Under the pieces are notes generated by a model that was not told the DNA's origin, searched no databases, and worked only from the letters and a program-made list of their open reading frames with translations. A program made the translations under genes and the position numbers. A stretch of 51,207 nucleotides of DNA from a virus (Duplodnaviria; Caudoviricetes), in the IMG/VR virus record IMGVR_UViG_3300020407_000005, positions 1 to 51,207 of that record. One strand, 5' to 3'. Below, piece by piece: positions 481 through 22,525 of this stretch (position 1 is its first letter; each line of letters opens with the position of its first letter).

Positions 481-1512
481 TCACAGTGACCTCCGCTTTA
501 TGTGCCTCGTCCGGTCGTAGACCCGGGCCGTGGTGCCAGGATCGGCGTGCATCTCGGGTAGGGCACCGTGCTCGAGCTTGTGGTACGTCGTGTAGTGCGC
601 CCGCAGGTCGTGGAAGGTGAAGCGCTCGAGCACCACCCGCTCGGCCAGCGCCTTGTCCATCAGCCGCGCCCACATGGCCTTGAACCCCGGCTCGCTGTAC
701 GGGTTGCCGGTCCGAGGTGCGGCGAACACCGGCCCCATCGGGTTGAACTCCGGCCGGGCCCGCATCCGCTCGAGCACCACGCGCAGGCGGTCGCTGATCG
801 CCACCAGCTCGCGCTTTCCCCTCGAGCCTCGCTGCTTGGCCCGCTGCAGCCTGACCAGCTCGTCGTCCACCTGCGGCCAGTGCAGGCGCAGGAACTCAGC
901 GCGGCGGTTGCCGGCCAGGGCAGCAAACTCGGCCATCGACACCAGCACCACGGCGCTGTCGCCCTGCCGCAGCGCCCAGGCGGCGAACGCCTCGAGTTCG
1001 TCTCGCTCCACCAGCCGGCCGCGCGGTTCCTCGCGGTTGCGGCGCACCTCTTTGCACGGGTTGCGGTCGATGTCGCCCCGCTCGACCGCCAGGTTGAACA
1101 GGTTCGACAGCAGGGCCACTTCCCGGTTCGCAGACACCGGCGCGTCGGCACGCTCCACGCGCAGGTACTTGGCCACGTCGGCCGGCCGCACGGCGCTCAC
1201 CACGGCGCCGGCCCACACCTTCTCCACGATGCGCCACTGCTCGGCGTAGACCCGGCGCGTGCTCTCGGCCAGACGCTTCCACTGCGCGCTGTCCTGGTAC
1301 AGGCGCCACATCTGGCCGATGGTGCCCTGGTCCGTGGCCCGAGCGTTCAGGTCCAGCACCTGGCGCAGCGCGGCTTCCCGGTCGGTGCCCAGGCGCAACC
1401 ATTTGCCGTCGTGCTGCAGGAACCGGTAGGTGATCAGCCCGTCCTTGCGCGGGCGGGCCTCCATGCGCGGCAGCAGGCCGGCGCTGCTCGAGCGGTCGCG
1501 GGGGCGGGTCAT
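481..1512 (-). CDS. int: Phage tyrosine integrase
   Basis: GNRRAE (catalytic R), FHDLRAHY (HxxR), HADPGTTARVY (catalytic Y); adjacent to attL; start trimmed to MTRPRDR. Confidence 0.92.
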   Translation of the reverse strand: MTRPRDRSSSAGLLPRMEARPRKDGLITYRFLQHDGKWLRLGTDREAALRQVLDLNARATDQGTIGQMWRLYQDSAQWKRLAESTRRVYAEQWRIVEKVWAGAVVSAVRPADVAKYLRVERADAPVSANREVALLSNLFNLAVERGDIDRNPCKEVRRNREEPRGRLVERDELEAFAAWALRQGDSAVVLVSMAEFAALAGNRRAEFLRLHWPQVDDELVRLQRAKQRGSRGKRELVAISDRLRVVLERMRARPEFNPMGPVFAAPRTGNPYSEPGFKAMWARLMDKALAERVVLERFTFHDLRAHYTTYHKLEHGALPEMHADPGTTARVYDRTRHIKRRSL

Positions 1513-1730
1513 GCTGCTCTGCGGCTCCAATTGATGCCGTTGGCGGCCTGCTGCGGCGCCGCGATGCCGCTGATGGCGGCTTGGAAGGCGGCGCGGCCGA
1601 CCAGCAGTGTGCCATCCGGCCGGCGCCGGTACGGCACGCCCCAGCGCGCCAGCACTTTGGCCTGCGATGTGGGCCGGCGGCGCGCCGTGGCCGCTGCCAG
1701 TTCGTCGTCGCTCAGGAACAGGTCGGTCAC
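1509..1730 (-). CDS. Excisionase (DUF4224-like)
   Basis: FLSDDELAAATARRRPTSQAKVLARWGVPYRRRPDG pattern; overlaps the integrase start. Confidence 0.8.
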   Translation of the reverse strand: MTDLFLSDDELAAATARRRPTSQAKVLARWGVPYRRRPDGTLLVGRAAFQAAISGIAAPQQAANGINWSRRAA

Positions 1731-1966
1731 TGCATCCCCTCCCTGCTCGGCGGCGGCTCATCCCTTTCGGGCACGTCCTTGGCCTCGATGTCGTCATCTC
1801 GCTCTTCCTGCCACGGTGCCCAGCGCTCGGCGTCGCGCTGCTGGCGCTGCTCGCGGATGTCCCTTTTGCGCATCATTCGCTCCCTTGCCCGGCCACGTAT
1901 CCAATCAGGAATGCCAGCGCCACAAGGAAGATCAAGAACGCAATCTGGTCGCTCGTAAAGTCCATC

Positions 1967-2455
1967 TCAATCCCCTTCCTTGCGAGCGTTGTTGATCAGC
2001 GTTTGCGCGCGGATCAGCGCTTTGCAGGCCATGCAGCCGTTGTCGCGCGACTCGTGGCCGGTCATGTGGTCCGGGCACAGACTCACGAAATCATGCTGGA
2101 GGCGGCCAGAGCCAACGGCGATCAGGTCTTCAAGGGCAAGCGACGTTTCCGCCGCATCAGCCCGCAGCGCCTCTACCTGCGCCTGCAGCTCGTCACGCTC
2201 TGCTGTGAGTGACGCAATGGCATCGTGGAGGGTCTGTGCGAGCTTGTGCTTTTCACCGGGCCATGCATGCTCGCGCAGCACATAGCCATTCCTTGCCACG
2301 TAGTCGGCTTGATCGCGCATCCAGGCGTCCGCTTCATGCTTGTAAGAAAACCCAATGCAGTACGCCGACTCGTCGGGCGTCATCACGTACCAGCGCCTTG
2401 CCGGCGCCGTGATTTCCAGCAGCCTCAGTGCTGCCTGTGTGGTGGTGTCGGTCAT
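1967..2455 (-). CDS. Phage hypothetical protein
   Basis: ORF in the leftward operon with overlapping start/stop coupling; coiled-coil segment and C-terminal CxxC. Confidence 0.6.
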   Translation of the reverse strand: MTDTTTQAALRLLEITAPARRWYVMTPDESAYCIGFSYKHEADAWMRDQADYVARNGYVLREHAWPGEKHKLAQTLHDAIASLTAERDELQAQVEALRADAAETSLALEDLIAVGSGRLQHDFVSLCPDHMTGHESRDNGCMACKALIRAQTLINNARKEGD

Positions 2456-2697
2456 TGCACGGTCTCCAGGCGCTGCGGGAACTGCGGGCCGTTCTTGCGG
2501 ATGAAGGCGGCGGTTCCTTCCAGCCGCTGCGCCGCGATCTCCCGCCCTTCGTTGCAGGCCATGAGCAGGCCGGTCACGCTGGCCAGCTTCATGAGCACGT
2601 TGCCGATGTCTTCCCTGGACTGCATGTCGCAGGCGTTCAGGTACTCGGTGATGGCCTTCGTGGCGAGGGCCTCGGCCTGTTGCTGGGTAACGGTCAT
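2452..2697 (-). CDS. Phage hypothetical protein
   Basis: 81 aa, AGGAG RBS, coupled to neighbours. Confidence 0.65.
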   Translation of the reverse strand: MTVTQQQAEALATKAITEYLNACDMQSREDIGNVLMKLASVTGLLMACNEGREIAAQRLEGTAAFIRKNGPQFPQRLETVQ

Positions 2698-2879
2698 GTC
2701 GTCTCCTTGATGCTGGGCGCCGGGTGCTGGGATCGGTCATCAACCCGGTGACAGTGGAACGTCTTGCGCCCGACGAAGAAGCTGCCCAAGTGCTCGCACT
2801 CGCTGGCGATGGTGCTGTGAGCCCAAAGCCAGCCGACAAAGACGCCAATGGCAAACGTTGCGATCAGCCATCCCATCAC
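2694..2879 (-). CDS. Small membrane-anchored phage protein
   Basis: N-terminal hydrophobic helix, ECEHLGSFFVG motif, coupled to neighbours. Confidence 0.6.
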   Translation of the reverse strand: MMGWLIATFAIGVFVGWLWAHSTIASECEHLGSFFVGRKTFHCHRVDDRSQHPAPSIKETT

Positions 2880-3775
2880 CGCTCTCCTTCGCCGTGCGGG
2901 GCTGCGTCAGCCTCATGCAGCGGTCCTGTGCAGTACGGGTCGCGCTGCAGGCGGGCCATTGCTTCGCGGATGGCCTGCCGTGGATCGTCCCGGTACACCT
3001 CACTCGCCACGCGCTCCGCTGGTCGGCCCTGATGGTGCTGCACCGTCCGCCAGCCCACGTCGTCGTCGCCCAGGCTGAAGCAGCGCAAGTCCAGCGACTC
3101 AGAGCCCAGGAAGTCCAGCAGCTGCGAGTCCTCTGCCTGCGGCACTTGTGCGGCCCCCTGCGCAGCAGAGCGTGCTGCCAGCAGAGCCTTGCGCAGCTGA
3201 GGGATGCGCTTGTCGCGGAGGTTGGTGAACGTCTCGTACACGTCGTCCGGCATCGCCTTGCCCATGTACTCGGCGTGCAGCTGTGTGCGGTAGCCGGACG
3301 CCTGCTCAAAGTCCGTCAGCAGTTGCTCGAACGCCTCTCGCTCTCCCTGCGCCACAGGCTGCGCAGCTACACCGGCGGCGATGGCCCGCGCCTCGTCCAC
3401 CTTGGACTGCGTGACATGGCCGGCCGCCACCAGCAGCTGCGGCACGTAGGCATCGCCGGCAGGCTGCGCAGCGGGTGGGTGGGCGTAGAGCGATGTGACC
3501 ACCAGCGCAGGCAGGGGAAAGCCGCCTTGGGTCGTCGCAAACCGCACGTCCTCATCGGTGGGCCTGGTGGTCCACAGGGCCTGCTGCTTGATGGGCTCGC
3601 CCGGGAGGCCGACAGCCCAAGCCACAGGCTGCTGCTCCCCGAGCCGCGCCAGTAGTGCGCGCTCGGTGGCCCGGATCAGGTCAGCACCGGTAGACCCATC
3701 GGTTCCGTACCACTCGATTTCAAGCGCTTCAACCTCGGCCGCGGTCAGCAGCTCTGCGTGTGGGGTGGGGGTCAT
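2876..3775 (-). CDS. Modular phage early protein (EaA/Ead-like architecture)
   Basis: QPVAW...LYAHP linker motifs typical of mosaic phage early genes. Confidence 0.6.
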   Translation of the reverse strand: MTPTPHAELLTAAEVEALEIEWYGTDGSTGADLIRATERALLARLGEQQPVAWAVGLPGEPIKQQALWTTRPTDEDVRFATTQGGFPLPALVVTSLYAHPPAAQPAGDAYVPQLLVAAGHVTQSKVDEARAIAAGVAAQPVAQGEREAFEQLLTDFEQASGYRTQLHAEYMGKAMPDDVYETFTNLRDKRIPQLRKALLAARSAAQGAAQVPQAEDSQLLDFLGSESLDLRCFSLGDDDVGWRTVQHHQGRPAERVASEVYRDDPRQAIREAMARLQRDPYCTGPLHEADAAPHGEGER

Positions 3776-4047
3776 TGCGGTGCCTCCCAAGGGCGATTGA
3801 GGTTGCAGGCCGGCCCGGTCACTGGCTTGTCGGTCAGCAGCCCTTGCCGCTTGCAGAGGTGGCGTAGGTAGGCAATCGCCTCGGAGCCCTTGACGACGAA
3901 GATCGCCGCCTCGGTGTCTGCCACAGTGCAGCCGCCCATGAACACGCTCACCGCGTCGGTGTCCTTCTCGGCCGCCTCAAGAAGCTGCGTCACCGTTCTG
4001 CGGTCGCTGCGCAAAACGCTTTCGCGGCTCGTCTTGTCTGTGCTCAT
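3772..4047 (-). CDS. Phage hypothetical protein
   Basis: 91-aa ORF coupled within the operon. Confidence 0.55.
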   Translation of the reverse strand: MSTDKTSRESVLRSDRRTVTQLLEAAEKDTDAVSVFMGGCTVADTEAAIFVVKGSEAIAYLRHLCKRQGLLTDKPVTGPACNLNRPWEAPQ

Positions 4048-4274
4048 GATTGCACCTTGGTGGCGTCGATCTTCTCGACGGTGATGCGGTAGGTGGGCAC
4101 GCCGTTGACCGACACGTCAACCGACTTGCCGCTGTGCAGGACGTGCTCGATGACTGCGCCGCAGGCCGGGCCTGTCACGTCCTGTTTGCTCGCCCAGGTG
4201 GCTCCATCCTTGGCCACGGTCCCCGCGTAGATGCGGCCGGTAAGCGGCGATGTGCCGACATGCAGGGGCTTCAT
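4044..4274 (-). CDS. Phage hypothetical protein
   Basis: MKPLHVGTSPLTGRIYAG, AAGGAG RBS, coupled to the upstream stop. Confidence 0.65.
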   Translation of the reverse strand: MKPLHVGTSPLTGRIYAGTVAKDGATWASKQDVTGPACGAVIEHVLHSGKSVDVSVNGVPTYRITVEKIDATKVQS

Positions 4275-6055
4275 TGCTGCTCCTTGGGGGTGGTACCGGC
4301 AGGGGTGATGCCACGCAGCCCTGCGCGCACTTCCATCCACAGCTTGCCGAGCATGTTCTGGCCGTCGCGGTTCGGCCCCCAGCCCCAATAGTCGTCGCGC
4401 CAGGAGTCTTCGATCAACTCGCGGTCGCCGGTCTCCAGCAGCTTGCGGCGCACGTACTCGTGCTGCGACGCCTTCGCGCGGAGGATCTCCCGCATGATGT
4501 CCACCTTGACCGCATCCCAGTCGGCGCGGCGGTAGCCCTTCCAGCGCTCAGCGAGCTTGAATGCCCAGTGGGCTGAGGGTGCTTCCTTGATGGACATGGC
4601 GAGGTTGCGGCGCTGGAAAGCGTCGTTGACGGATTCGCCGACCCGCTCATAGGCGAACTTCTCGTAGTGGTAGGCGTGCTCGCTCGTCGGGAACGTCAAG
4701 CCGTTGAACTTCAGGTTGAAGGCGCTGAAGTTGGACAGGACGTAGAAGTCCTGCTCGTAGAAGAAAACCTGCTGGTCGTTGTCCAGCTTGTGGTGATCGG
4801 TCAGCGGCACCAGCGCGGGTGCCTGCGGGCTTGGTGCGGTGTCCACAAGGGCCAGCCCACCGCATACGTCCAACACCATCATCGCCATGTTGGCCACATC
4901 GGCGCTGTACTCCTGAATGCCGGGGCCGTCGTTGTTCTTGACGGCTTTCTGCAGCTTGGCGAGGTGGTGGTACACCTCCAGAAGCGCGGTGCTGGCCGAC
5001 ATCTGAAGCCACCCTGGGCGGTCGCCCTTGCCGCTGTTGGCGTGCAGCTCGCGGCGCATCAGAGACAGGAACGGCATCAGCACGTCGTCGTACTTGTCGC
5101 CCACCGGCTGCGCTGCAGTGGGTGCGGCCTGGGGTGCGGGAGGGGCAGCGAGATCGTCATGCCGCGGCCCGATGAGCGATTCGGGGTCACCTCCGGCAAA
5201 GCGGATCACCTGGCGCCACACGCCATCCAGTGTCCGGCGGTGCACGTTCTGGATGGGCCGGTCCTGCACCTGCTCTTTCCAGCGGCCAACGGCCCAATCC
5301 ACCACGTCCGCTGGCATCGGGTGCACGGGCGTCACCGCGCCAGTGCCGGGGATCGGCAGCCAGCCGATGGGCTTGCCCTCGCCACGGCAGTAGCAGTCAT
5401 GGTGCCAGGACCAGCCGGCAAAGTGCCACGCCGGATCTTCCTTGGGGCCGCCATCGACGCCGTAGGAACCGATACTGACGCTCATCGTCTCGTCGTAAAG
5501 CGGGTGCTCGTTGTCATCGATCAGCAGCAGCACGGGCGTGCCGTCCGTCGGTGCCGTTGCCATCGGATTCCACGGCACCGTGGCCGCTGCATCCTGCGCA
5601 GGGGTGGGCTGGGATGCGCGGGCGGCGCGCAGAGCCTCTCGATAGGCAAACGCACCGTCTAGGAATGCCCCGGTGAACTTAGCGGCCATGTTCTGGCACT
5701 CCACCTCACGCCCCCGATAGAGCTGCTGCTTCCCGTCGCCCGCAACCACCGCATGCCTGTGGAACATGCTTTGGTCCGAGGCCACGGCCTGGTATCGATG
5801 GGCGGCTTCAGCCTCTAGGGCCCGCATCGGATCGCGCAAAGCATCCTCGTAGAGCGGAAGCCCGGCCGGCGCATCCTGTGCTGCTGACAGTGCAGCGCGG
5901 GCGGCTTCGCGCACTCGCCGGATGGCGAGGCTCACAGCCGTCGGCATGCGCATCGCGTACGGGTCGAAACCGGATCGCGTCGGCTGCTCCTCCAGCACGC
6001 GATCGAGTTCTTGAGCGGCCAGAAGCAGCTCAGGAGTTGAGGTGGCGTCGCTCAT
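4271..6055 (-). CDS. Multidomain protein: DUF551-like + MazG-like helical domain + C-terminal NADAR (YbiA) domain
   Basis: WNPMATAPTDGTPVLL...PIGWLPIP; KGDRPGW...EYSADVANMAMM; LSNF...TSEHAYHYEKF...KASQH...LLETGDRELIEDS..DDYWG...GQNMLGKLWMEVR. Confidence 0.85.
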   Translation of the reverse strand: MSDATSTPELLLAAQELDRVLEEQPTRSGFDPYAMRMPTAVSLAIRRVREAARAALSAAQDAPAGLPLYEDALRDPMRALEAEAAHRYQAVASDQSMFHRHAVVAGDGKQQLYRGREVECQNMAAKFTGAFLDGAFAYREALRAARASQPTPAQDAAATVPWNPMATAPTDGTPVLLLIDDNEHPLYDETMSVSIGSYGVDGGPKEDPAWHFAGWSWHHDCYCRGEGKPIGWLPIPGTGAVTPVHPMPADVVDWAVGRWKEQVQDRPIQNVHRRTLDGVWRQVIRFAGGDPESLIGPRHDDLAAPPAPQAAPTAAQPVGDKYDDVLMPFLSLMRRELHANSGKGDRPGWLQMSASTALLEVYHHLAKLQKAVKNNDGPGIQEYSADVANMAMMVLDVCGGLALVDTAPSPQAPALVPLTDHHKLDNDQQVFFYEQDFYVLSNFSAFNLKFNGLTFPTSEHAYHYEKFAYERVGESVNDAFQRRNLAMSIKEAPSAHWAFKLAERWKGYRRADWDAVKVDIMREILRAKASQHEYVRRKLLETGDRELIEDSWRDDYWGWGPNRDGQNMLGKLWMEVRAGLRGITPAGTTPKEQQ

Positions 6056-6645
6056 GGCAGAGCCTTTCGGTATGCGTCGTTGATCTCGGCCATGCGCGCC
6101 GGGTCGCCACCGCGGTCCGGGTGGTGCTGGCTGGCCAGGCGGCGGTAGGCGTCGCGGATCTCGGTCGGCGTGGCGCCGGCGGGCACGCCCAGCACCTCCC
6201 ACCAGCTGCGCGCCGCACCCGGTGCCGGCAGCGCGGTGAAGCCGGTGAACGCGGCTTCAAGCATGTCGCCCGTGCCCCAGCGCGCGATGCCGCGCAGCGC
6301 CTCGATGGTCTTCGCGATGGCCTGCATGTTGTGCTCGATGCGGTCCCACCGGTCGCACGCGAACGACATCTGGCGCTTCTTGTGGAGGAAGTAGACGGCC
6401 ACGCCCGGGTCGTCCGGCTGGCGCTGGTTGGCCAGCGGCAGGCCGTCGCGGCGCAGCGCGATGTTCGTGCTGATCACGACCTCGGGGTCGCGCGCGAACC
6501 GGCCGCCGGCGAGCAGGGTGACCTCCCGCACGATGTTGTCGCGCGCCCGGGCGAACGTCGTTTCGAACTTGGCGCGCTCGCGGCGCCAAGCCTCGGTGCG
6601 GGGCCGGCCTGCGGGCCAGGCCAGGGGGTAGGCCTCGACGGTCAT
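6052..6645 (-). CDS. Phage J-domain (DnaJ-like) protein
   Basis: C-terminal WWEVLGV...IRDAYRRLASQHHPDRGG...INDAY with HPD motif. Confidence 0.88.
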   Translation of the reverse strand: MTVEAYPLAWPAGRPRTEAWRRERAKFETTFARARDNIVREVTLLAGGRFARDPEVVISTNIALRRDGLPLANQRQPDDPGVAVYFLHKKRQMSFACDRWDRIEHNMQAIAKTIEALRGIARWGTGDMLEAAFTGFTALPAPGAARSWWEVLGVPAGATPTEIRDAYRRLASQHHPDRGGDPARMAEINDAYRKALP

Positions 6646-6836
6646 GACACGACGTCCAGCTCGCCGCCCTCGCTGTCGCTCTCGTCGTGCTCGGGCCCGG
6701 CGGCCTCATGCACGGCTTCCGGCGACAGCCCTAGGGCCTGGGCTACGGCCAGGGCTGCCGCATCGCGGTCCGGGACCAGCTCCAGCGCGCGGGTCATGGC
6801 GGCTTGCACGGTGGTGCGTTCGACGATCTGCACCAT
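6642..6836 (-). CDS. Phage hypothetical protein
   Basis: 64-aa ORF coupled to the J-domain gene. Confidence 0.55.
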   Translation of the reverse strand: MVQIVERTTVQAAMTRALELVPDRDAAALAVAQALGLSPEAVHEAAGPEHDESDSEGGELDVVS

Positions 6837-6839
6837 GGG

Positions 6840-7526
6840 TCAGCCCTCCGCGCTGTCGTCGTCGCCGCGCGCGCCCGGCAGGTCCAGGAAAGCCCGAGTC
6901 GCACGGTCGGCCGCAACGCTGGCCGGGTCTTCATCGAACAGGCTGCCCGTGTCATCGCCACCGGTGGTGCCATCAGCGCCCGGATGATCGGCGTGGAATG
7001 CCGCCAGGCTGCCGTCGATGGCATCCGGCTTGCGCTCGGGGGCCAGCAGCTTCAGCTGGATCTCGTGCTTGTTCAGCATGGCCAGCCGGCCGGCCTTGAG
7101 CTCGTCCAGGTCGCTGCTGCCGATACGCAGGCCCAGTTCAATGCTGCCGCCCTCGTGTGGCGTGACGACAAAGCCGTCAATCTTGGCGCCGCCCAGCTTG
7201 ATGTCGCTGGTTTCGTCGATGCCGAAGTCGATGATGACCGTGTAGCCGTTCAGTTCGCCCTTGAGCGCCAGGCGGTCGATGACGTTGTCACGCCGCAGCG
7301 GCAGCGCGATCCGCTCCATGCCGTCAAACTCCGGCTGCGGTTCCGGTTCCTCGGGCGACTTGTAGAGCTGGGCGCACAGGCCCTGGCTCAGCTGGTCCAG
7401 CAGCGTGTTGGCGGTGGTGATACGGATGCCGAGGGTAACGGCCGGCACGTCCTGGTCGCCGTGCTTTTCGGTGCGGTTGGTGACGGTGGCCAGCTTGGCC
7501 GGGGTGGCGTCGAGCAGTTGGAACAT
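6840..7526 (-). CDS. Phage hypothetical protein
   Basis: 228-aa ORF with AAAGG RBS and protein-like composition. Confidence 0.7.
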   Translation of the reverse strand: MFQLLDATPAKLATVTNRTEKHGDQDVPAVTLGIRITTANTLLDQLSQGLCAQLYKSPEEPEPQPEFDGMERIALPLRRDNVIDRLALKGELNGYTVIIDFGIDETSDIKLGGAKIDGFVVTPHEGGSIELGLRIGSSDLDELKAGRLAMLNKHEIQLKLLAPERKPDAIDGSLAAFHADHPGADGTTGGDDTGSLFDEDPASVAADRATRAFLDLPGARGDDDSAEG

Positions 7527-7528
7527 GA

Positions 7529-8077
7529 TCAGCCTTTCGGGATGGTGGTGCTTTGGTCGCGGGGCGTTTTGAGCAGGTTGTGGGCGGTGGTGACGCTTAC
7601 GGAAAGGGCTGCAGCGATCTGCCTCAGCACGGCGCCCGAGGCGCGCATAGCACGCGCGCGCTCCTGGTACGCGGGTGGAAGGCGCCGATAGGTGCGGAGG
7701 CCTGTCTCAACGGCATGCCTGTTGTTGTGCGCGCGGTCGCACCACTCAAGGTTGGATGCTCGGCAGTCCGCTCGATCACCGTTCAAGTGATTCACATCGG
7801 TGAAAGTCTCAGGTGATGCGTTTGGCACCCAAGCCAGAGCAACGGCCCGGTGAACGCGACACATACATTGGCGCTGTCCGATGAACAGTGCGACCGTGGG
7901 GTAGCCGTGGGAGAGAGCCGCACGCAGCCAGCGGCCTCCGTGCCTGCTCTTTCCCATGGTCTTGGCAAACGACCAAATGCGTCCGCACTCGGTTACGGCA
8001 TAGCGACCTTCAAAGCCGGGGATCGTGCGAACCGGCATGTCTGGCTCAACGATGGGTATGTGCTTGCGCTTGGTCAT
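7529..8077 (-). CDS. NUMOD4-like/HNH homing endonuclease
   Basis: IPGFEGRYAVTECGRIWS; VHRAVALAWV...VNHLNGDRADCRASNLEWC..AHN; C-terminal HTH. Confidence 0.88.
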   Translation of the reverse strand: MTKRKHIPIVEPDMPVRTIPGFEGRYAVTECGRIWSFAKTMGKSRHGGRWLRAALSHGYPTVALFIGQRQCMCRVHRAVALAWVPNASPETFTDVNHLNGDRADCRASNLEWCDRAHNNRHAVETGLRTYRRLPPAYQERARAMRASGAVLRQIAAALSVSVTTAHNLLKTPRDQSTTIPKG

Positions 8078-8078
8078 A

Positions 8079-8291
8079 TCAACGCGCCGGCATGCCCAGA
8101 CGGGCCCAGCCGACGATCTCTTCCTGGTGCTGGTGCAGCACCTTCCGCGGCTTGTCCGACACCGCGCAGTCGCTGATGACCTGCTGGCTGCCGGCCACGA
8201 AGGCACGCTGCAGCCAGCGCTCGATCTCCTCGGGCTTGACCACCGGAGAGACCTCGGCCGCGTACTGCCGGGCGCTGTCGATGAGGGTCAT
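8079..8291 (-). CDS. Phage hypothetical protein
   Basis: 70-aa ORF coupled to the exonuclease. Confidence 0.5.
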   Translation of the reverse strand: MTLIDSARQYAAEVSPVVKPEEIERWLQRAFVAGSQQVISDCAVSDKPRKVLHQHQEEIVGWARLGMPAR

Positions 8292-8887
8292 GCGGCCCTC
8301 CGTTCGACCTCTGCGACCATCGCCTGCAGCTCGCCCTCGAACTGGCGGCAGGCCGCGATCAGCCGCGCGATGTAGGCGTCGTCACGCTCGATGCGCTGGG
8401 TGTAGAGGCGGAAGCGCTCGCTCTGCCGCGGGTCGTAGCTGGTGAAGAGCCACCAGCTGCGGCCGTGCACAGCCATGTTCCCCTGCACCTGGGCGCGGTG
8501 ATCGGCCGGCATGCCGTCCAGCCACGTGGCGATGTGCACCGCCTCGTCGTGCGGGCACTTGTTCTCCCATCCGCCGTCGGGCTCGATGAGGCCGTCAGCG
8601 CTGGCGCCGATGAACGGGTACGCCGGGTGCAGCTTGAACGCGGCAGCTTCGATGATGTGGCCGGTGGCCAGCTCTGCCGCGGCCTTGGCGAAGGGCTCCA
8701 GGTCGGTGCCCCAGGCCAGGGCCTTGCCGGTCACCGAGTGCTTGGCTGCAGCGGCCAGGCGCTCGAAGCACAGCTCACGCATGTACTTCTGGCGCGCGGC
8801 CGGCGAGCCCAGTACGTCGTTGAACCGGCTGGCTGTGATCTTGCCGGCACGCTGCAGGTGCCAGTCCTCGGTGCGCTGCTCGATCAC
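8288..8887 (-). CDS. YqaJ/lambda-type exonuclease
   Basis: QRTEDWHLQRAGKITAS, WGTDLEP, GASADGL, ENKCP, QVQGNM motifs. Confidence 0.92.
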   Translation of the reverse strand: MIEQRTEDWHLQRAGKITASRFNDVLGSPAARQKYMRELCFERLAAAAKHSVTGKALAWGTDLEPFAKAAAELATGHIIEAAAFKLHPAYPFIGASADGLIEPDGGWENKCPHDEAVHIATWLDGMPADHRAQVQGNMAVHGRSWWLFTSYDPRQSERFRLYTQRIERDDAYIARLIAACRQFEGELQAMVAEVERRAA

Positions 8888-9876
8888 GATGCGGCGCCCT
8901 CGCCAGTGGCGCCCGCAGCTGCAGCATCGGCTGCGGCCACCTCGGCCATCTTGCGGTCGGTTTCCTGACCGATGGCGCCGATGCGGTCACGCTCGCCCAG
9001 GCCGATGGCGGCGCGGTCTTCCTTGGGCAGCTTGCCCCAGGCTGCCTTGAATGCCTCGAAGCCGTTGTTGTAGGCCTCCAGCTCCAGCTGCTCGATGATC
9101 TTGTCGTGGGCCGGCGTGCGGTCGGGCTTGGACGCGGCGGCAGCAGCACCGACCACGGCGGCCGGTGCGTTGCGCGGCGGCGGTGCGGTGGTGGCGCCGA
9201 TGCCCGCTGCAGCGCCTTCCTCCAGCTCGTCGGGGGTGTACACGCCCAGGATGACGTCGGGCGCATGCAGGCGGCCCCAGCGCTTGGCGGCCAGGTAGGC
9301 GATCTGCTGGCGCGGGTCGGCTGCCCAGTTCGGCGAGTTGCGCACGCTGCCCACCTGGGCCATCGTGACTTCCAGCAGCCGCGGCTTGCCCTCGCCGCGC
9401 ATCGTGGCCCACACGCGCACGCCGCGGTCTGCGCTCTTGTCGGCCTTGCCGTCGACGTTGGTCCAGGTGCCGAACCACTCGAAGTCCAGCCGGGTGGCCA
9501 GGGCCTTGCTGTTGTTCAGCACCGCGATGATGAGCTGCGCCTCGTAGCCGAGGGCGCCGTTCACCAGGTGCGTCTTCTGCGCGACGGCGTTGTGATCCAT
9601 GCCCCAGCGCATGGCCTGGCCGATGACGGCCGCGCAGTCGCCGACGTTGCCCTGCAGGTGCTTCGGGCAGGTGATGCGGCTGGAGGCCATCACCTCGGCC
9701 AGGCGCATCACCTTGTCCAGCATGTCGTCCTGCAGCAGGTCGCGCACGCTGAAAGGCTGCTGGCGCAGCAGGCGGTCGAGTTCGGACGAGGCACCGGTGG
9801 CCTCGTGTGCAGCGGCGGCGATCTCGCCGGTCTTCGGGTCAGCCTGCTGTGCGGCGGTCATGGTGGCGGTGGTCAT
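8884..9876 (-). CDS. RecT-family single-strand annealing protein
   Basis: PKHLQG..GDC.AV..QAMRWGMD...VAQKTHLVNG.LGYEAQL...PDVILGVYTPDEL; adjacent to the exonuclease. Confidence 0.82.
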   Translation of the reverse strand: MTTATMTAAQQADPKTGEIAAAAHEATGASSELDRLLRQQPFSVRDLLQDDMLDKVMRLAEVMASSRITCPKHLQGNVGDCAAVIGQAMRWGMDHNAVAQKTHLVNGALGYEAQLIIAVLNNSKALATRLDFEWFGTWTNVDGKADKSADRGVRVWATMRGEGKPRLLEVTMAQVGSVRNSPNWAADPRQQIAYLAAKRWGRLHAPDVILGVYTPDELEEGAAAGIGATTAPPPRNAPAAVVGAAAAASKPDRTPAHDKIIEQLELEAYNNGFEAFKAAWGKLPKEDRAAIGLGERDRIGAIGQETDRKMAEVAAADAAAAGATGEGAAS

Positions 9877-9923
9877 CGTGGTAGCTCCATGCCCGGAGAC
9901 TCAGCCCGGGCGTCGGTTGGGAT

Positions 9924-11093
9924 TCAGTAGGCGAGGGTGTCCAGGTCGTCGGCGACCGTGGCGGCGGCGATGGCTTCTTCGCGGGCGTGGCGGGCGTTCT
10001 GCAGTTCGTCGGCATCGCCGCTGGCATCGGCGGCCTGCCACTGCTTCAGCGCGTCCAGCATCAGCGGCGCGGCATCGCGCACGCGGCGGCAGGCGGCTTC
10101 CTCGGCCTCGCGCTTCGCGCGCGCCGCAGCTTCGGCCGCTTCACGCTCGGCCCGGGCCTTGGCCTCGGCGGCTTCACGTGCGGCACGCTCGCGGGCTTCC
10201 TGCTCTTCGCGCAGGCGGCGCAGCTCAGCGGCTTCAGCATCGAGTCGGCGCTGCTCGGCTTCGTGGGCTTCACGGGCCATGCGGTCGGCCTCGGCGCGCT
10301 CCGCAGCCGCCTTGCGGTCGGCTTCCTCGCGGGCGGCGCGGGCCTCGGCCTGCTCACGCTCGAACGCCGCGCGCTCTTCGGCCAGGCGCTGGCGCTCGGC
10401 TGCGGCTTCGGCAGCCTGACGCTCACGCTCCACACGCTCGCGCTCGGCCTGCTCGGCGCGCAGTCGGTCCAGCTCGGCACGCTCGGCCGCCGCGCGGGCC
10501 GCATCGGCTTCGCGCTGCACCGCGGCGGCATGCTGGGCGCGCAGGCTGGCCAGCACCTTCGTGCGCGAGGCCTCGGCCTGCTGCTCGAATTCCTGGAAGC
10601 TTTCGTCGATCTTCAGCGCCACCAGGGCGGTGATGCGCTGTTCGATGTCGCAGGCTTCGCCGTCGCCCACCAGGGCCATGTCGGCGATCTCGGCGACGCG
10701 CTGCTGCAAGGCCGCCACGCGGCGCTGTTCCTCGGCCGCCTTGCGCTGGCGCTCGGCTTCCTTGCGCTGCTCTTCGGCCTTGATGGCTGCATCGACCGGG
10801 CCTTCCAGCTTCTCGATCTCGCCGGTGATGCGCTTGGCCTCGTCGTTGCGAGCCTTGATGCGCGCCTGGTCGTCGGCGTTGAGCTGCAGGCGCATTTTGT
10901 CGAGCGAGGTGCGCAGGCTCACCAGTTCTTTGCGCACGGCCCGCGCGTCACGGTCACCGCTGGCGGTGCTGCAGTCCCACACCACACCGGCATACCGGCG
11001 CTGCAGGTCGGCCAGCGCCGCCGCGGTGCGGGTGTACTCGGCAATCTGGGTGGTGGTGGCCGAGTCGTCGGCCTCGATGACGGTCTGTTCCAT
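9924..11093 (-). CDS. Coiled-coil phage protein of the recombination module
   Basis: 389 aa with Ala/Glu/Arg-rich heptads, directly upstream of recT. Confidence 0.7.
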   Translation of the reverse strand: MEQTVIEADDSATTTQIAEYTRTAAALADLQRRYAGVVWDCSTASGDRDARAVRKELVSLRTSLDKMRLQLNADDQARIKARNDEAKRITGEIEKLEGPVDAAIKAEEQRKEAERQRKAAEEQRRVAALQQRVAEIADMALVGDGEACDIEQRITALVALKIDESFQEFEQQAEASRTKVLASLRAQHAAAVQREADAARAAAERAELDRLRAEQAERERVERERQAAEAAAERQRLAEERAAFEREQAEARAAREEADRKAAAERAEADRMAREAHEAEQRRLDAEAAELRRLREEQEARERAAREAAEAKARAEREAAEAAARAKREAEEAACRRVRDAAPLMLDALKQWQAADASGDADELQNARHAREEAIAAATVADDLDTLAY

Positions 11094-11096
11094 AGG

Positions 11097-11360
11097 TCAG
11101 TCCTTGGTGATGGAGTTGTTCTCTGCCGCCCGCTGCGCAGCGAAGCGCTCGGCCTGCCGGCGCGCGCGCTCGTCCCACTGCTCGGGCGTCAACATCGCGT
11201 AGCCCTTGCGGTTGCCCAGGCGCGGGTGGCACAGCTCGGTGATCTGCTCCAGCAGCTCGCCGAAGCACAGCTGCTGCGTCTCGCGGCCGTACTCGTCGAT
11301 GACGTTGAAGCTGTGGCCGCCGAACTCATTGGTGCCGGCCTCGATGACAAAGCGCCGCAT
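11097..11360 (-). CDS. Phage hypothetical protein
   Basis: ORF in the operon (MRRFVIEAG...). Confidence 0.55.
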   Translation of the reverse strand: MRRFVIEAGTNEFGGHSFNVIDEYGRETQQLCFGELLEQITELCHPRLGNRKGYAMLTPEQWDERARRQAERFAAQRAAENNSITKD

Positions 11361-11665
11361 CACCACCCCCACCGAAACGTGTCGCGCCAGGCGCTGCGCA
11401 CGGCATCCGCGGCCAGCCGCAAGAACGACGGCCGGAGGTAGATCTCGACCGCAGCGGCGCGCTCATCGGCAAAGGCTTCGCTGGTGGACCGTGGATAGCG
11501 CCGCGTCGTCGGGCAGCCGTAGCGCTCGGCGATGTGCCGATCGACGTCGGCTTCGGTGAGCGCGCCGATGCCGCAGTCGCACGGGCCGCGGCCCTGGCTG
11601 CAGGTGCCGCCGCAGGCGGGGAGGGTGGCCACGCGGTGCGTGGACAGGGTGTAGACGGTTCCCAT
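11360..11665 (-). CDS. Phage hypothetical protein with a CxxxCxQGRxxCxC motif
   Basis: CGGTCSQGRGPCDC; GGAG RBS. Confidence 0.55.
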   Translation of the reverse strand: MGTVYTLSTHRVATLPACGGTCSQGRGPCDCGIGALTEADVDRHIAERYGCPTTRRYPRSTSEAFADERAAAVEIYLRPSFLRLAADAVRSAWRDTFRWGW

Positions 11666-11943
11666 GTCAGGCTCCAAACCACGGGCCGGGCCTGGCAGCC
11701 GAGCCCGCGATGGTTGCGAGGAAGACGAACAGGCCAAGGGCGGCCTGCCCGCGGCGCTGCCACACGAAGCGGCCGACGGCGACCAGCGCCACCAGCAGCA
11801 ATTCCAGGAAGAGGGCCACCTTCACAGCGACCACCACACGCCCGCGAGGGCAAGGGCAACGGCCGCCAGGGCCTGGGCCACGGTCAGCGCGATGTCGCGC
11901 ACGCGGCGGTGATGGGCCATGAAGCGCAGGTCTTGGTCGGTGG

Positions 11944-12414
11944 TCATGCCTTAAACCGCGCCCGCTGCGCGTCCTCGTAGGCCTTCTCCAGCGTCGGCAG
12001 CATCTCCGCATGCCGGCGCTTCGCTTCGTCCAGCGCGATGTCGGCGTTGTGCGCCTTGATGCGCTCGCGCAGCACCACCACGGCCGGCAGCACCTGGTCG
12101 TTCGTGCCGCCGCCCACGATGGCCAGCAGCGTGTCGAAGGACTGCGCGGCCATGTCGGTGATGCCGTCGAGCTTCACCGCGTCAGTGGTGTCGGTGCACA
12201 GCTTGCTGATGGTCCAGGCCACCAGGTCGGGCGTGCGCAGCTGCTCGTCGGCCACGTCCTCGGCCAGCTGCTCGACGGTGGGCACCGAGGCCTCGATGTC
12301 GTCGGCGTCGTTGCGCGGGTCGTTCGGGTTCATGGTCGGCGCCGCGTGCAGGTCAGCGTCGAAGCAGTGCGGGCCGCGCCAGGCCAGCATGGCGCTGGTG
12401 AGGATGGCGCTCAT
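11944..12414 (-). CDS. Phage hypothetical protein
   Basis: 156-aa ORF with start/stop overlaps on both sides. Confidence 0.65.
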   Translation of the reverse strand: MSAILTSAMLAWRGPHCFDADLHAAPTMNPNDPRNDADDIEASVPTVEQLAEDVADEQLRTPDLVAWTISKLCTDTTDAVKLDGITDMAAQSFDTLLAIVGGGTNDQVLPAVVVLRERIKAHNADIALDEAKRRHAEMLPTLEKAYEDAQRARFKA

Positions 12415-12605
12415 TGCAGCCGCTCCAGGCCGTTGTGGGGCACGAAGCGGTAGCGGCGCTGCTCGTTCTTGCCCAGGCCAACCAGGATGTACGCGTCAGG
12501 CTTGTAGTCGCCCGGCGTGGCTTCCTTGGCCGCCACGCGCAGGCTGAGGAAGCCCACGCGCACGGTCTCGCCGATCTCCCATGTCTGCTTGCTGTTGCTG
12601 ATCAC
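12411..12605 (-). CDS. First gene of the leftward early operon, hypothetical
   Basis: GGAGAG RBS downstream of the PL-like promoter. Confidence 0.65.
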   Translation of the reverse strand: MISNSKQTWEIGETVRVGFLSLRVAAKEATPGDYKPDAYILVGLGKNEQRRYRFVPHNGLERLQ

Positions 12606-15530: not shown

Positions 15531-15884
15531 GTGGAACAAGCGTTCCTGCCGCTGCTGGGACGGATCGACGCACCAGCTGTCGTTCCGCCCGACCTGTTCA
15601 AGACCATCCGCACCTATCGCGCTGCCGTCCGCCTGTGCTGGGCGCTGCGTCGCGCCAAGGGCCTGCGCCCCATCGACCTGGGCCGCGACTTCGGCTTCAC
15701 GCGCCAGCACGTGACCGACTACCTGCACGACGACGACGCGCCAACCCGCCGCAGCCTGCCTGCCGAGCGCATCGCCGAGTTTGAAGACATCTGCGGCAAC
15801 ACCGCCATCACGCAGTGGCTCGCCCAGCGCGCGCAGCTGACGGTGCTGGAAGAGATGCAGGCTGCAAGGCGGGCTGCAGCATGA
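15531..15884 (+). CDS. XRE/CII-like HTH regulator
   Basis: GTG start with GGAGG RBS; LGRDFGFTRQHVTDYL HTH; GNTAITQWLA. Confidence 0.65.
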   Translation: MEQAFLPLLGRIDAPAVVPPDLFKTIRTYRAAVRLCWALRRAKGLRPIDLGRDFGFTRQHVTDYLHDDDAPTRRSLPAERIAEFEDICGNTAITQWLAQRAQLTVLEEMQAARRAAA

Positions 15885-16666
15885 GGACGCCGCAATTCAT
15901 CCTGCCCCTGGCCGACGAGCTGGTGGTTGACTTGTTCGCTGGTGGCGGCGGCGCCAGCACTGGCATCGAGGCCGCAATCGGCCGACACGTGGACATCGCC
16001 GTCAACCACGACCCGGAGGCCGTCAGCCTGCACCAGGTCAACCACCCGCAGACCGAGCACCACGTCAGCAATGTGTGGGAGGTGGACCCGCGCACCGTGT
16101 GCCGCGGCCGGCCGATCGGCCTGCTGTGGGCCAGCCCGGACTGCACTTTCCACAGCAAGGCCCGCGGCGGCAAACCGCACCGAGACCGCAACAAGGCGCG
16201 CCGGCGCCGCGGCCTGGCCAGCGTGGTGGTCAAGTGGGTGCGGCTGCTGAAGCCCACCGACCAGCACCCGCGCGTGATCCACCTTGAGAACGTCGAAGAG
16301 TTTCAGTTCTGGGGGCCTCTGCTGCCCGATGGCACGCCCTGCCCCGAGCGGCGCGGCACCAGCTTCCAGCGCTGGGTGGCGCAGCTGCGCAACCTGGGCT
16401 ACCAGGTCGAGAACCCCGCCGAAGGGCCGGCCGAGGCTTCGTATGAGGCCTATCTCTGCCGCGGCCTGCTGCAGCTGCTGACGTGCGACACCGTGGCGCT
16501 GTTGCCGGGCTGGGAGCGCTCGCGCGGCGCCCGTATCGAGCACCAGGTGGCACGGGCGCTGGGCATGCGCATCGAGACGCTCAGCGGGGTTGTGCCGCAG
16601 CCCGTGTGCGCACCGGTGGTCTTGGCCCCCGCATCTCGGCTCTTCATGTCGTCGACAGCGGCCTGA
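15881..16666 (+). pseudogene. Chimeric truncated C5 cytosine methyltransferase fused to a DUF4406-like C-terminus
   Basis: DLFAGGGG (motif I), ASPDC (IV), LENVEEF (VI), then NPAE...LLTCDTVALLPGWERSRGARIEHQVA; motifs VIII-X and the TRD are absent. Confidence 0.7.
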
Positions 16667-21667: not shown

Positions 21668-22525
21668 ATGCAACTCGCGATGACCCGGTACCGCCGCTAC
21701 AGCGGCAACGACAGGCACTTCGGCCCGTTCATCACCCTGAGCCGACACGGCAATGAACACTGGCGCCCGTTTGGCGTGGTGCTCGACAGCGGCGACGGCG
21801 ACGACTACAAGGGCTGCAACCTCGCCTTCCATGCCTGCGGCCGCACACTGATCATCGAGCTGCCGCCCATCCTGAAGCCGTGGCGACAGTGGGTGCCCAC
21901 GGGACACTACCACTGGGCGAAGTCTCCCGATGACGGCTACTGGGACACGCATCGCCGCGAGTTCGGGTTCCGCTACAGCGGCGACACGGGATTCCTGCAG
22001 GTGTTCCTCGGCGCGCAGACCCACGACAGCACAACCACGAAGAGCTGGTGCAAGTCGCTGCCGTGGAAGCAATGGCGGCACGTGCGGCACAGCATGTACG
22101 GCCTCGGCGGCGAGCATCACTTCACCCAACTGGATGCCGACCGGCGCAAGGGCGGCGATCACTGGGACGCGCGCCAGGCCGCCGAGAAGTCCTGCCCCAC
22201 CGCCAAGTTCCTGTTCCGCGACTTCGACGGCATGTTCATCGTCGCCACCGCCCGGATGGAAGAACGCGAGTGGCACTTCGGCGAAGGCTGGTTCAAGTGG
22301 CTGTCGGTGTTCCGCAAGCCGCGCGTGCACCGGTCGCTGGACCTGGAGTTCAGCCAGGAGGTGGGCAAGGACAAGGGCTCATGGAAAGGCGGCACGCTGG
22401 GCCACGGCATCGAGATGCTGCCCGGCGAGGATCACGAGGCCGCATTCCGCCGGTACTGCGCGGCGGGGTCCACGTCGAAGCATGGGCCCGGCGAGCTGAC
22501 GTTTGTGCGGCGGCTGGAGGAATGA
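21668..22525 (+). CDS. Trp-rich phage hypothetical protein
   Basis: 285-aa ORF with strong GC3 bias. Confidence 0.7.
   Translation: MQLAMTRYRRYSGNDRHFGPFITLSRHGNEHWRPFGVVLDSGDGDDYKGCNLAFHACGRTLIIELPPILKPWRQWVPTGHYHWAKSPDDGYWDTHRREFGFRYSGDTGFLQVFLGAQTHDSTTTKSWCKSLPWKQWRHVRHSMYGLGGEHHFTQLDADRRKGGDHWDARQAAEKSCPTAKFLFRDFDGMFIVATARMEEREWHFGEGWFKWLSVFRKPRVHRSLDLEFSQEVGKDKGSWKGGTLGHGIEMLPGEDHEAAFRRYCAAGSTSKHGPGELTFVRRLEE

Follow-up and report, generated by a model that had tools for sequence, protein, structure and literature searches.

A predicted YbiA-type NADAR domain ends a six-module mosaic protein of a temperate phage

The virus record IMGVR_UViG_3300020407_000005 (Duplodnaviria; Caudoviricetes), which in its entirety (51,207 bases, rated 100% complete, G+C content about 67%) is the window analysed here, carries on its minus strand a gene for a protein of 594 residues composed of six modules joined in frame. 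The C-terminal module is a NADAR domain that retains the catalytic Glu and Lys of its family and, as judged from a sequence alignment, belongs to the YbiA type. It is the sole Pfam family of the protein, residues 1-422 having no match even at E<=10. The novelty lies in the architecture and the genomic surroundings of a phage NADAR of a known kind, fused here with three module families that lack annotation. We propose that the protein is an accessory product of a temperate phage built of independent beads, one of which would remove ADP-ribose from nucleobases in a counter-defence role. Such a role for a nucleobase de-ADP-ribosylase is plausible, and the proposal as a whole is judged to have an even chance of being right.

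A first-pass annotation had placed the gene at 4271-6055, in exact agreement with the frame that starts at ATG 6055-6053, and had regarded its product as an early-expressed polyprotein with NADAR, MazG-like and DUF551-like modules that counters ADP-ribosylation of DNA. The three modules named in it are present, and three more (residues 1-75, 76-160 and 246-312) had been missed. The term polyprotein implies processing, which nothing supports.

Membership and subtype of the NADAR module

The Pfam NADAR family (PF08719) matches residues 431-581, corresponding to 4313-4765 (E-value 3e-30; score 106.1 bits, cut-off 35.1). The match spans profile positions 1-163 of 163, and the full motif set previously placed at about 4320-4770 is indeed there, Glu459 and Lys466 included. 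TIGR02464 scores 95.5 bits (cut-off 73.7), and the anti-phage NADAR model NF053876 failed with 59.9 bits (cut-off 240). A search of solved structures at E<=1 returned two NADARs only, the Escherichia coli YbiA (2b3w, E-value 5.9e-19, 35% identity) and the P. nicotianae NADAR (8bau, E-value 7.7e-6). The Pfam match begins about 10 residues past a Pro/Ala linker, a limit read from the sequence.

Published NADARs employ a catalytic Glu/Lys pair, E88 and K95 in the E. coli C7 enzyme and E43 and K50 in the P. nicotianae one (PMC11543638), and are sorted by a residue of the final beta strand, which is Glu in the YbiA type, Asp in the DarT1-linked type and His in T4-type phage NADARs (PMC11543638). 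The sorting position corresponds to E125 in the P. nicotianae NADAR and D171 in the E. coli C7 NADAR (PMC11543638, PMC11125620). To place the C-terminal module, hereafter module E, 44 members of its clade were aligned with E. coli YbiA and T4 gp30.3 as controls. Glu459 and Lys466, the catalytic residues whose absence would have spoken against the earlier claim, are invariant in the 44 clade rows and also kept in both controls. The sorting position is Glu549, with Glu again in 44/44 clade rows, and the controls carry E (YbiA) and H (T4 gp30.3) as published. Since this position is occupied by Glu, module E is, on the alignment, a YbiA-type NADAR. The Asp of the DarT1-linked antitoxins (DarG1, BC4488) is not found there, nor is the His of the T4 type (AdfN), and identity to T4 gp30.3 is 21%.

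With 3066 proteins of <=325 residues at E<=0.001, this is a large clade, spread over viral contigs and genomes of Beta-, Alpha- and Gammaproteobacteria. Among 42 NADAR open reading frames (ORFs) in viral contigs, 26 are of stand-alone size (<=205 residues) and 16 are longer, the lengths being counted from the first possible start and hence too long in G+C-rich DNA. Among cultured phages, the closest NADARs are at most 38.8% identical to module E.

The chemistry of NADARs is well grounded in published enzymes, and the activity of module E is predicted from its sequence by likeness to them. Guanosine-ADP-ribose is removed from DNA in vitro by YbiA, T4 gp30.3, sigma70-linked and DarT1-linked NADARs (PMC11125620) and is hydrolysed by every NADAR tested in the available reports, including Bas32 and Bas60 (PMC11125620, PMC11257639). 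Guanosine-ADP-ribose in RNA is also reversed (PMC11833690), and cytidine-ADP-ribose is reversed by YbiA types (PMC12945103). Module E, the sole module with predictable chemistry, would be expected to cut, whether in DNA or in RNA, the N-glycosidic bond that links ADP-ribose to a nucleobase, which would be guanine and perhaps also cytosine.

E. coli YbiA, the closest solved relative of module E, is alike in the catalytic Glu and Lys and in the last-strand Glu, and its core without the NADAR-specific N-terminal extension may have a counterpart in module E; it differs in being a stand-alone, chromosomal protein encoded in a LexA-controlled operon with dinG (PMC11125620), whereas module E is the C-terminal bead of a phage protein. 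T4 AdfN (gp30.3), Bas32 and Bas60 are phage NADARs without a cognate toxin, as is module E, and early expression, guanine-ADP-ribose glycohydrolase activity and an anti-DarTG1 effect have been demonstrated for those (PMC11257639). They are, unlike module E, stand-alone proteins from virulent phages, and gp30.3 has His at the Glu549 position. In the YarT-YbiA system of myxobacteria, a YbiA-type NADAR is the antitoxin of YarT, an ADP-ribosyltransferase toxin other than DarT (PMC11125620); there the NADAR lies beside the toxin gene, and no ADP-ribosyltransferase gene was seen beside the 594-residue gene. According to a 2022 survey, NADARs occur in about 1% of phages outside myoviruses, and viral NADARs are typically stand-alone.

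Module organisation and shuffling

The division of the protein was derived from BLAST maps of 240 database relatives, in which six blocks match different protein sets at 45-80% identity: A0 (residues 1-75), A1 (76-160), B (162-242), C (250-312), D (305-412) and E (420-594); the limits adopted are listed in Table 1. Between the modules lie linkers rich in Pro, Ala and Gln, as the earlier description had it. The widest coverage by one match is 49% (P0007, modules D and E), and the complete six-module arrangement was not found again among the 240 relatives. All six modules are found again in other proteins, singly or combined differently, stand-alone proteins being known for B, D and E, and the module order varies among proteins (D-B, A1-D, A1-C, D-C). 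The modules therefore most likely act independently, like beads on a string, and the fusion would be an outcome of recombination and not a unit of function.

NADARs 93-99% identical to module E stand behind unrelated N-termini in P0003-P0006 and P0243. The Lar restriction-alleviation domain is a fusion partner in four relatives (P0003, P0029, P0118, P0227); other partners are HNH_3 with AP2 (P0036), an R67-type DHFR (P0063), a DnaJ zinc finger (P0018) and WDGH (P0009). In P0036, the HNH_3-AP2 unit is joined directly to the NADAR. Modules D and E occur together only in P0007 and P0008, that is in 2 of the 120 proteins of one relatives set and in none of 122 new proteins from a search for the module D family; a functional pairing of D with E was dropped for this reason. 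Module A1 is the sole module in 111 of the 120 proteins of another relatives set, module A0 has few relatives (P0133, P0135, P0240, P0171), and module C is common to BcepNY3gp60, P0207, P0223, P0227 and P0083.

Six contigs of a metagenome run from another study (X2) show no differences across 4205-5182 and 5245-5976 and bridge the junctions E-D, D-C, C-B and B-A1; the listed contigs leave out 5183-5244 and 5977-6136. Another run, X1, may be where the record itself comes from. An assembly chimera is ruled out by the presence of these junctions in the independent run X2, and since they are unchanged there the fusion is taken as real.

A peptide ending in AAATVP stands before nine different downstream modules in seven close relatives. 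Contigs of two other organisms match only the NADAR part and three stretches of linker DNA (5105-5145, 5573-5627 and 5863-5903), and between these stretches their sequence differs, the modules having been replaced. This pattern fits an in-frame exchange at the linkers, as far as can be judged from sequence comparison. A wider search of 114 viral and genomic loci with 45-base windows found the linker DNA in none of them and NADAR motifs in up to 42, by which a general recombination site in the linker DNA is ruled out and the conservation of the linkers is limited to one narrow lineage. Within 1900-12500, no internal DNA repeats involve the linkers.

The model of module D, built from 58 aligned sequences, is all-helical with a mean predicted local distance difference test score (pLDDT) of 81. 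The first Foldseek match is AF_0060 (2p06; E-value 0.033, TM score 0.77 by target), followed by MazG-related, PRA-PH, dCTPase and MazG entries. VIA-align superposes 85 of 88 residues on 2p06 with a Z-score of 12.2 and a root mean square deviation of 2.3 A, the next entry reaching 7.5, and the leads from the ESM Atlas agree with a MazG-superfamily fold, to which the confident model assigns the module. The sequence alignment to AF_0060 is weak (E-value 0.73) and agrees with the structural range. It sets HHLAK (family consensus YHLAK) opposite EExxE, and EYSAD (ExxxD) opposite DELLD (ExxD). With HHxxK at the EExxE position, (deoxy)nucleoside triphosphate ((d)NTP) pyrophosphatase activity is doubtful, and the classical carboxylate cluster appears to be mostly missing. 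Glu336, Glu360, His364, Lys367, Glu382 and Asp386 are near-invariant in the family, which has 924 cluster representatives at E<=1e-3. The helical stretch KG..GW...E.ADVAN.AMM pointed out earlier is therefore a real domain (residues about 315-405, about 4841-5113); its likeness to all-alpha NTP pyrophosphohydrolases stands for the fold and not for the catalytic glutamates, the HHxxK having been overlooked. No MazG, PRA-PH or MazG-like Pfam model matched at E<=10, nor did any PHROG model, and a profile of 347 positions that included flanking modules found nothing among PDB sequences at E<=10. Module D probably has the fold without the Mg-dependent site of the classical NTP pyrophosphohydrolases. 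It may rely on other residues or serve to bind a nucleotide.

Module B, whose homologues stand alone at 88-153 residues, is a five-stranded beta module in a 320-residue model (pLDDT 73). About 20 of the 50 matches listed from BFVD, a database of predicted viral structures, are named DUF551 (E-values 2.5e-3 to 0.2, with a multi-domain model as query), and the top match is an Achromobacter phage protein (E-value 1e-4, 38% identity over 81 columns). The DUF551 profile PF04448 has no match in the 594-residue protein. P0127 is the one stand-alone homologue that it touches, with 14.9 bits (cut-off 22) and within 15 C-terminal residues. The name DUF551-like, as proposed in the first-pass annotation, may thus be fair for the modelled B at the level of fold and finds no counterpart in the Pfam profile.

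Modules A0, A1 and C are without a named family. In the A1 model (pLDDT 81-96), three strands lie between a first helix and a second, long one. Foldseek found no solved structure at E<=0.001 for the three modules inside the 320-residue model, and with VIA-align against 48,161 chains the best Z-score of 5.7 equals the helix background, so that no fold can be named. The ESM Atlas gave no usable feature match for A1, its structural rows being weak and PH-like. At E<=0.01, PHROGs held no family for A1 or D; module B matches phrog_924 weakly and P0207 matches phrog_6851 outside module C, both families being of unknown function.

Operon and phage setting

The longest open frame over the locus is 4271-6202 on the minus strand, and for its first 49 codons it shares DNA with the closing part of the J-domain ORF, read in another frame. 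The likely start codon is ATG 6055-6053, which gives the 594-residue product (P0002) and overlaps, as ATGA, the stop codon TGA of the J-domain ORF upstream. On the 3' side, the stop codon TGA 4273-4271 shares an ATGA with the ATG of the DUF7446 gene, AAGGAG lying just before. These overlaps make the gene part of an operon with translational coupling. In the minus-strand order, RecT, YqaJ, the HNH/NUMOD4 ORF and two small ORFs precede the J-domain gene and the 594-residue gene, after which come DUF7446, three ORFs without a family and the tyrosine integrase (Table 1). On the plus strand are genes for a DnaB-like helicase, a portal of T7 type and a tail fibre that carries an S74 chaperone. From the gene content of both strands, including the integrase, the phage is considered temperate.

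Table 1. Coordinates of the modules of the 594-residue protein and of genes in its operon
Feature	Residues	Position	Strand	Remarks
Modular NADAR gene	1-594	4271..6055	-	594 codons and stop
Module A0	1-75	5831..6055	-	helical hairpin; rare
Module A1	76-148	5612..5830	-	conserved core 80-136; no named family
A1-B linker	149-161	5573..5611	-	
Module B	162-242	5330..5572	-	five-stranded beta module, possibly DUF551-like at fold level (model)
Module C	249-302	5150..5311	-	small helical module
Module D	317-405	4841..5107	-	helical bundle, AF_0060/MazG-like all-alpha NTP pyrophosphohydrolase fold (model)
Module E	421-594	4274..4795	-	predicted YbiA-type NADAR; Glu459, Lys466, Glu549, Asp554, Trp557
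RecT		8884-9876	-	first in transcription order
YqaJ exonuclease		8288-8887	-	second in transcription order, after RecT
HNH_3/NUMOD4 homing-endonuclease-like ORF		7529-8206	-	between recombination and accessory genes
J-domain gene		6052..6645	-	upstream in operon; 197 residues; C-terminal PF00226, E-value 7.7e-11
DUF7446 gene		4044..4274	-	downstream in operon; PF24233, E-value 5.1e-18
Tyrosine integrase		481-1797	-	last in transcription order

The 594-residue gene is placed as are the lambda exo-xis genes, between exonuclease and integration genes in a leftward early operon; those genes are described as early, non-essential and mosaic (PMC10834534). We infer early expression from this position between exo/RecT and int, in line with the first-pass annotation. 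In five other loci (L004, L010, L014, L019, L030), the NADAR gene likewise has a YqaJ homologue 2-4 kb upstream. The J-domain protein matches phrog_9210 along its whole length (E-value 6.6e-58), and relatives of it adjoin module D genes on the downstream side in L056 and L067.

No cultured close relative was found among 50,697 phage records, where even the best DNA matches cover no more than 9% of the 5.2 kb used as query. The probable host order is deduced from the names that the nearest relatives of the modules bear (Aquincola, Piscinibacter, Variovorax, Rhodoferax, Delftia). A plus-strand ORF of 285 residues (21668-22525) matches the whole PF25187 profile of Acb3, a CBASS inhibitor, with an E-value of 8.9e-78. 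Situated upstream of the T7-type portal gene at a distance of about 1.5 kb, it is likely to be a second counter-defence gene of the phage. The ORF 15815-16666 (+), of provisional limits, combines an N-terminal C-5 cytosine DNA methylase part (PF00145, E-value 1.6e-9) with DUF4406 (E-value 6.8e-18). Near the 594-residue gene, the N-terminus of ORF 2876-3790 (-) resembles, by eye and without a score, that of P0243, the C-terminus of which is a NADAR 99% identical to module E; from this likeness, modules seem to be mobile between neighbouring genes too.

Candidate roles of the protein

Under the counter-defence proposal, the leftward operon, reaching from the recombination genes (RecT, YqaJ) to the integrase, would yield the protein early, and its NADAR would take off again the ADP-ribose that a host ADP-ribosyltransferase, acting as defence or toxin, had put on phage nucleic acid. 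Several observations weigh against it. NADAR is also found in a defence family (NF053876). E. coli YbiA is reported to rescue neither DarT1 nor YarT toxicity in vivo, and thymidine-ADP-ribose was removed by none of the four NADARs tested in the available text (PMC11125620). It has been argued that phage NADARs mostly target small soluble ADP-ribose derivatives and not macromolecules (PMC9503650). For four of the six modules no function can be deduced, which leaves most of the protein unexplained, and no target ADP-ribosyltransferase can be named, the host order itself being deduced from the names of relatives. Lastly, the DarT loci examined in the likely host order are not linked to NADARs, as described below.

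The most specific form of the proposal, that the NADAR removes DarT1-placed ADP-ribose from guanine in phage DNA in the manner of T4 AdfN, Bas32 and Bas60, is distinctly unlikely. It draws on the intact catalytic residues and on the divergent phage NADARs Bas32 and Bas60, which are not DarG1-like and yet neutralised DarT1 (PMC11257639). The NADAR is also an orphan: in agreement with the first-pass annotation, the DarT profile PF14487 has no match in the whole record, in a search without its own positive control, and the same model found DarT elsewhere, in 27 of 401 genomes (one of them, G042, unpublished) sampled from the order of the Variovorax genome G011, an occurrence of DarT that counts in favour as well. 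These points are countered by the signature Glu, which is neither the Asp of DarT1-linked NADARs nor the His of the T4 type, and by the absence of the DarT-linked G. lovleyi NADAR among the solved-structure matches at E<=1. In the available text of PMC11125620, DarT1 toxicity is rescued only by the DarT1-linked NADAR and in part by the sigma70-linked one, the E. coli YbiA and T4 NADARs giving no rescue. None of 16 genomes with a NADAR of the module E clade has a DarT match, and the clade profile finds no NADAR within 1.5 kb of any of the ten best DarT loci. Of the 26 published DarT-positive genomes, to which further analysis was confined, five have a NADAR and only G175 has one nearby. There a Macro-domain DarG follows DarT, and the system is therefore of the DarTG2 kind; a DarT-NADAR gene pair was not found in these 26 genomes of the likely host order. 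The nearby NADAR of G175 (locus L133, G175:C42:3000-11500, at 2853-5039 on the plus strand) is the N-terminal part, of YbiA type by its Glu signature, of a 728-residue protein that also has a type I restriction-modification specificity domain and is set in a defence island, with KwaB-like and PRTase-CE genes on one side and the DarT and Macro (DarG) pair on the other. The earlier claim that the protein counters DNA ADP-ribosylation thus keeps the support of the catalytic residues, and its link to DarT1 is weak, given Glu549 and the missing gene pair.

Somewhat less improbable, though still unlikely, is that the NADAR acts on small molecules such as ADP-ribose-derived immune signals, NAD-derived products or intermediates of the riboflavin pathway, as plant and bacterial YbiA do. 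The YbiA-type signature and the apparently naked core, without the DNA-binding N-terminal extension of DarT1-linked NADARs (PMC11543638), would suit such substrates, TIGR02464 scores above its cut-off, and soluble derivatives are the main targets proposed for phage NADARs in the work cited above (PMC9503650). The phage moreover encodes a full-length Acb3 homologue, so that interference with nucleotide signals is within its repertoire. Against this, there are no riboflavin genes nearby, TIGR02464 is a broad domain model, and all NADARs tested in the accessible reports, YbiA too, are active on nucleobase-ADP-ribose (PMC11125620, PMC11833690). The first-pass annotation had held that clustering only with riboflavin-intermediate YbiA enzymes would count against it; with Glu549 and YbiA as the best match, module E comes close to that, and YbiA types for their part hydrolyse guanosine- and cytidine-ADP-ribose (PMC11125620, PMC12945103). 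An equally low likelihood attaches to the idea that module D is an active pyrophosphohydrolase of (d)NTPs or signal nucleotides, working with the NADAR as a two-enzyme anti-defence tool: the AF_0060 superposition with the MazG, PRA-PH and dCTPase entries after it, the near-invariant Glu336, Glu360, His364, Glu382 and Asp386, and the presence of D with E in P0007 and P0008 speak for it, and the replaced motifs (by a weak alignment), the lack of a superfamily Pfam match, the rarity of the D-E pair and the ease with which helical bundles reach middling Z-scores speak against it. In the remaining explanation the protein, in the manner of lambda Ea22 and other exo-xis proteins, would regulate the phage life cycle or the physiology of the host, its modules binding host proteins without any counter-defence. 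Lambda ea22 is alike in its exo-integration position and its mosaic nature, with portable C-terminal domains including DUF551 (PMC10834534), and a J-domain protein gene lies directly upstream of the 594-residue gene. Ea22 has no detectable sequence relation to the present protein and measures 182 residues with a coiled coil, as against six modules and an enzyme domain; residues 1-422 have no Pfam match; the active site kept in 44/44 aligned clade members would argue for catalysis; and Lar restriction-alleviation domains are among the fusion partners. This explanation is as improbable as a specific action against DarTG1.

The preferred reading, an accessory protein of independent beads that includes a nucleobase de-ADP-ribosylating NADAR, recalls the polyvalent proteins of phages and conjugative elements described by Iyer, Burroughs and Aravind, which reportedly combine independent counter-defence or host-manipulation domains in one chain. 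Those are said to be thousands of residues long and delivered with the DNA, in contrast to the 594 residues of the present protein, encoded in an early operon and not among virion genes. A far-reaching and rather improbable extension would make the exo-int operon a combinatorial workshop, where swaps at linkers yield Swiss-army early proteins with each bead directed against a different defence. Module D would then be a new MazG branch with a His/Lys site destroying or sequestering a nucleotide, A1 and C would be new counter-defence families, and the NADAR would guard DNA or RNA from an undescribed G/C-directed ADP-ribosyltransferase of Burkholderiales.

Not until 2024-2025 were orphan phage NADARs shown to defeat DarTG1, the demonstrations being limited to stand-alone NADARs from virulent coliphages. 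The present analysis adds a large clade, of YbiA type by its signature, in temperate phages and prophages of Proteobacteria, the members of which often end mosaic proteins, for example beside Lar. The three abundant module families without Pfam or PHROG annotation are candidates for a cheap counter-defence screen. If the NADAR is active on ADP-ribosylated bases, nucleic-acid ADP-ribosylation would exert pressure on temperate phages well beyond E. coli, and targets other than DarT1 would be worth seeking.

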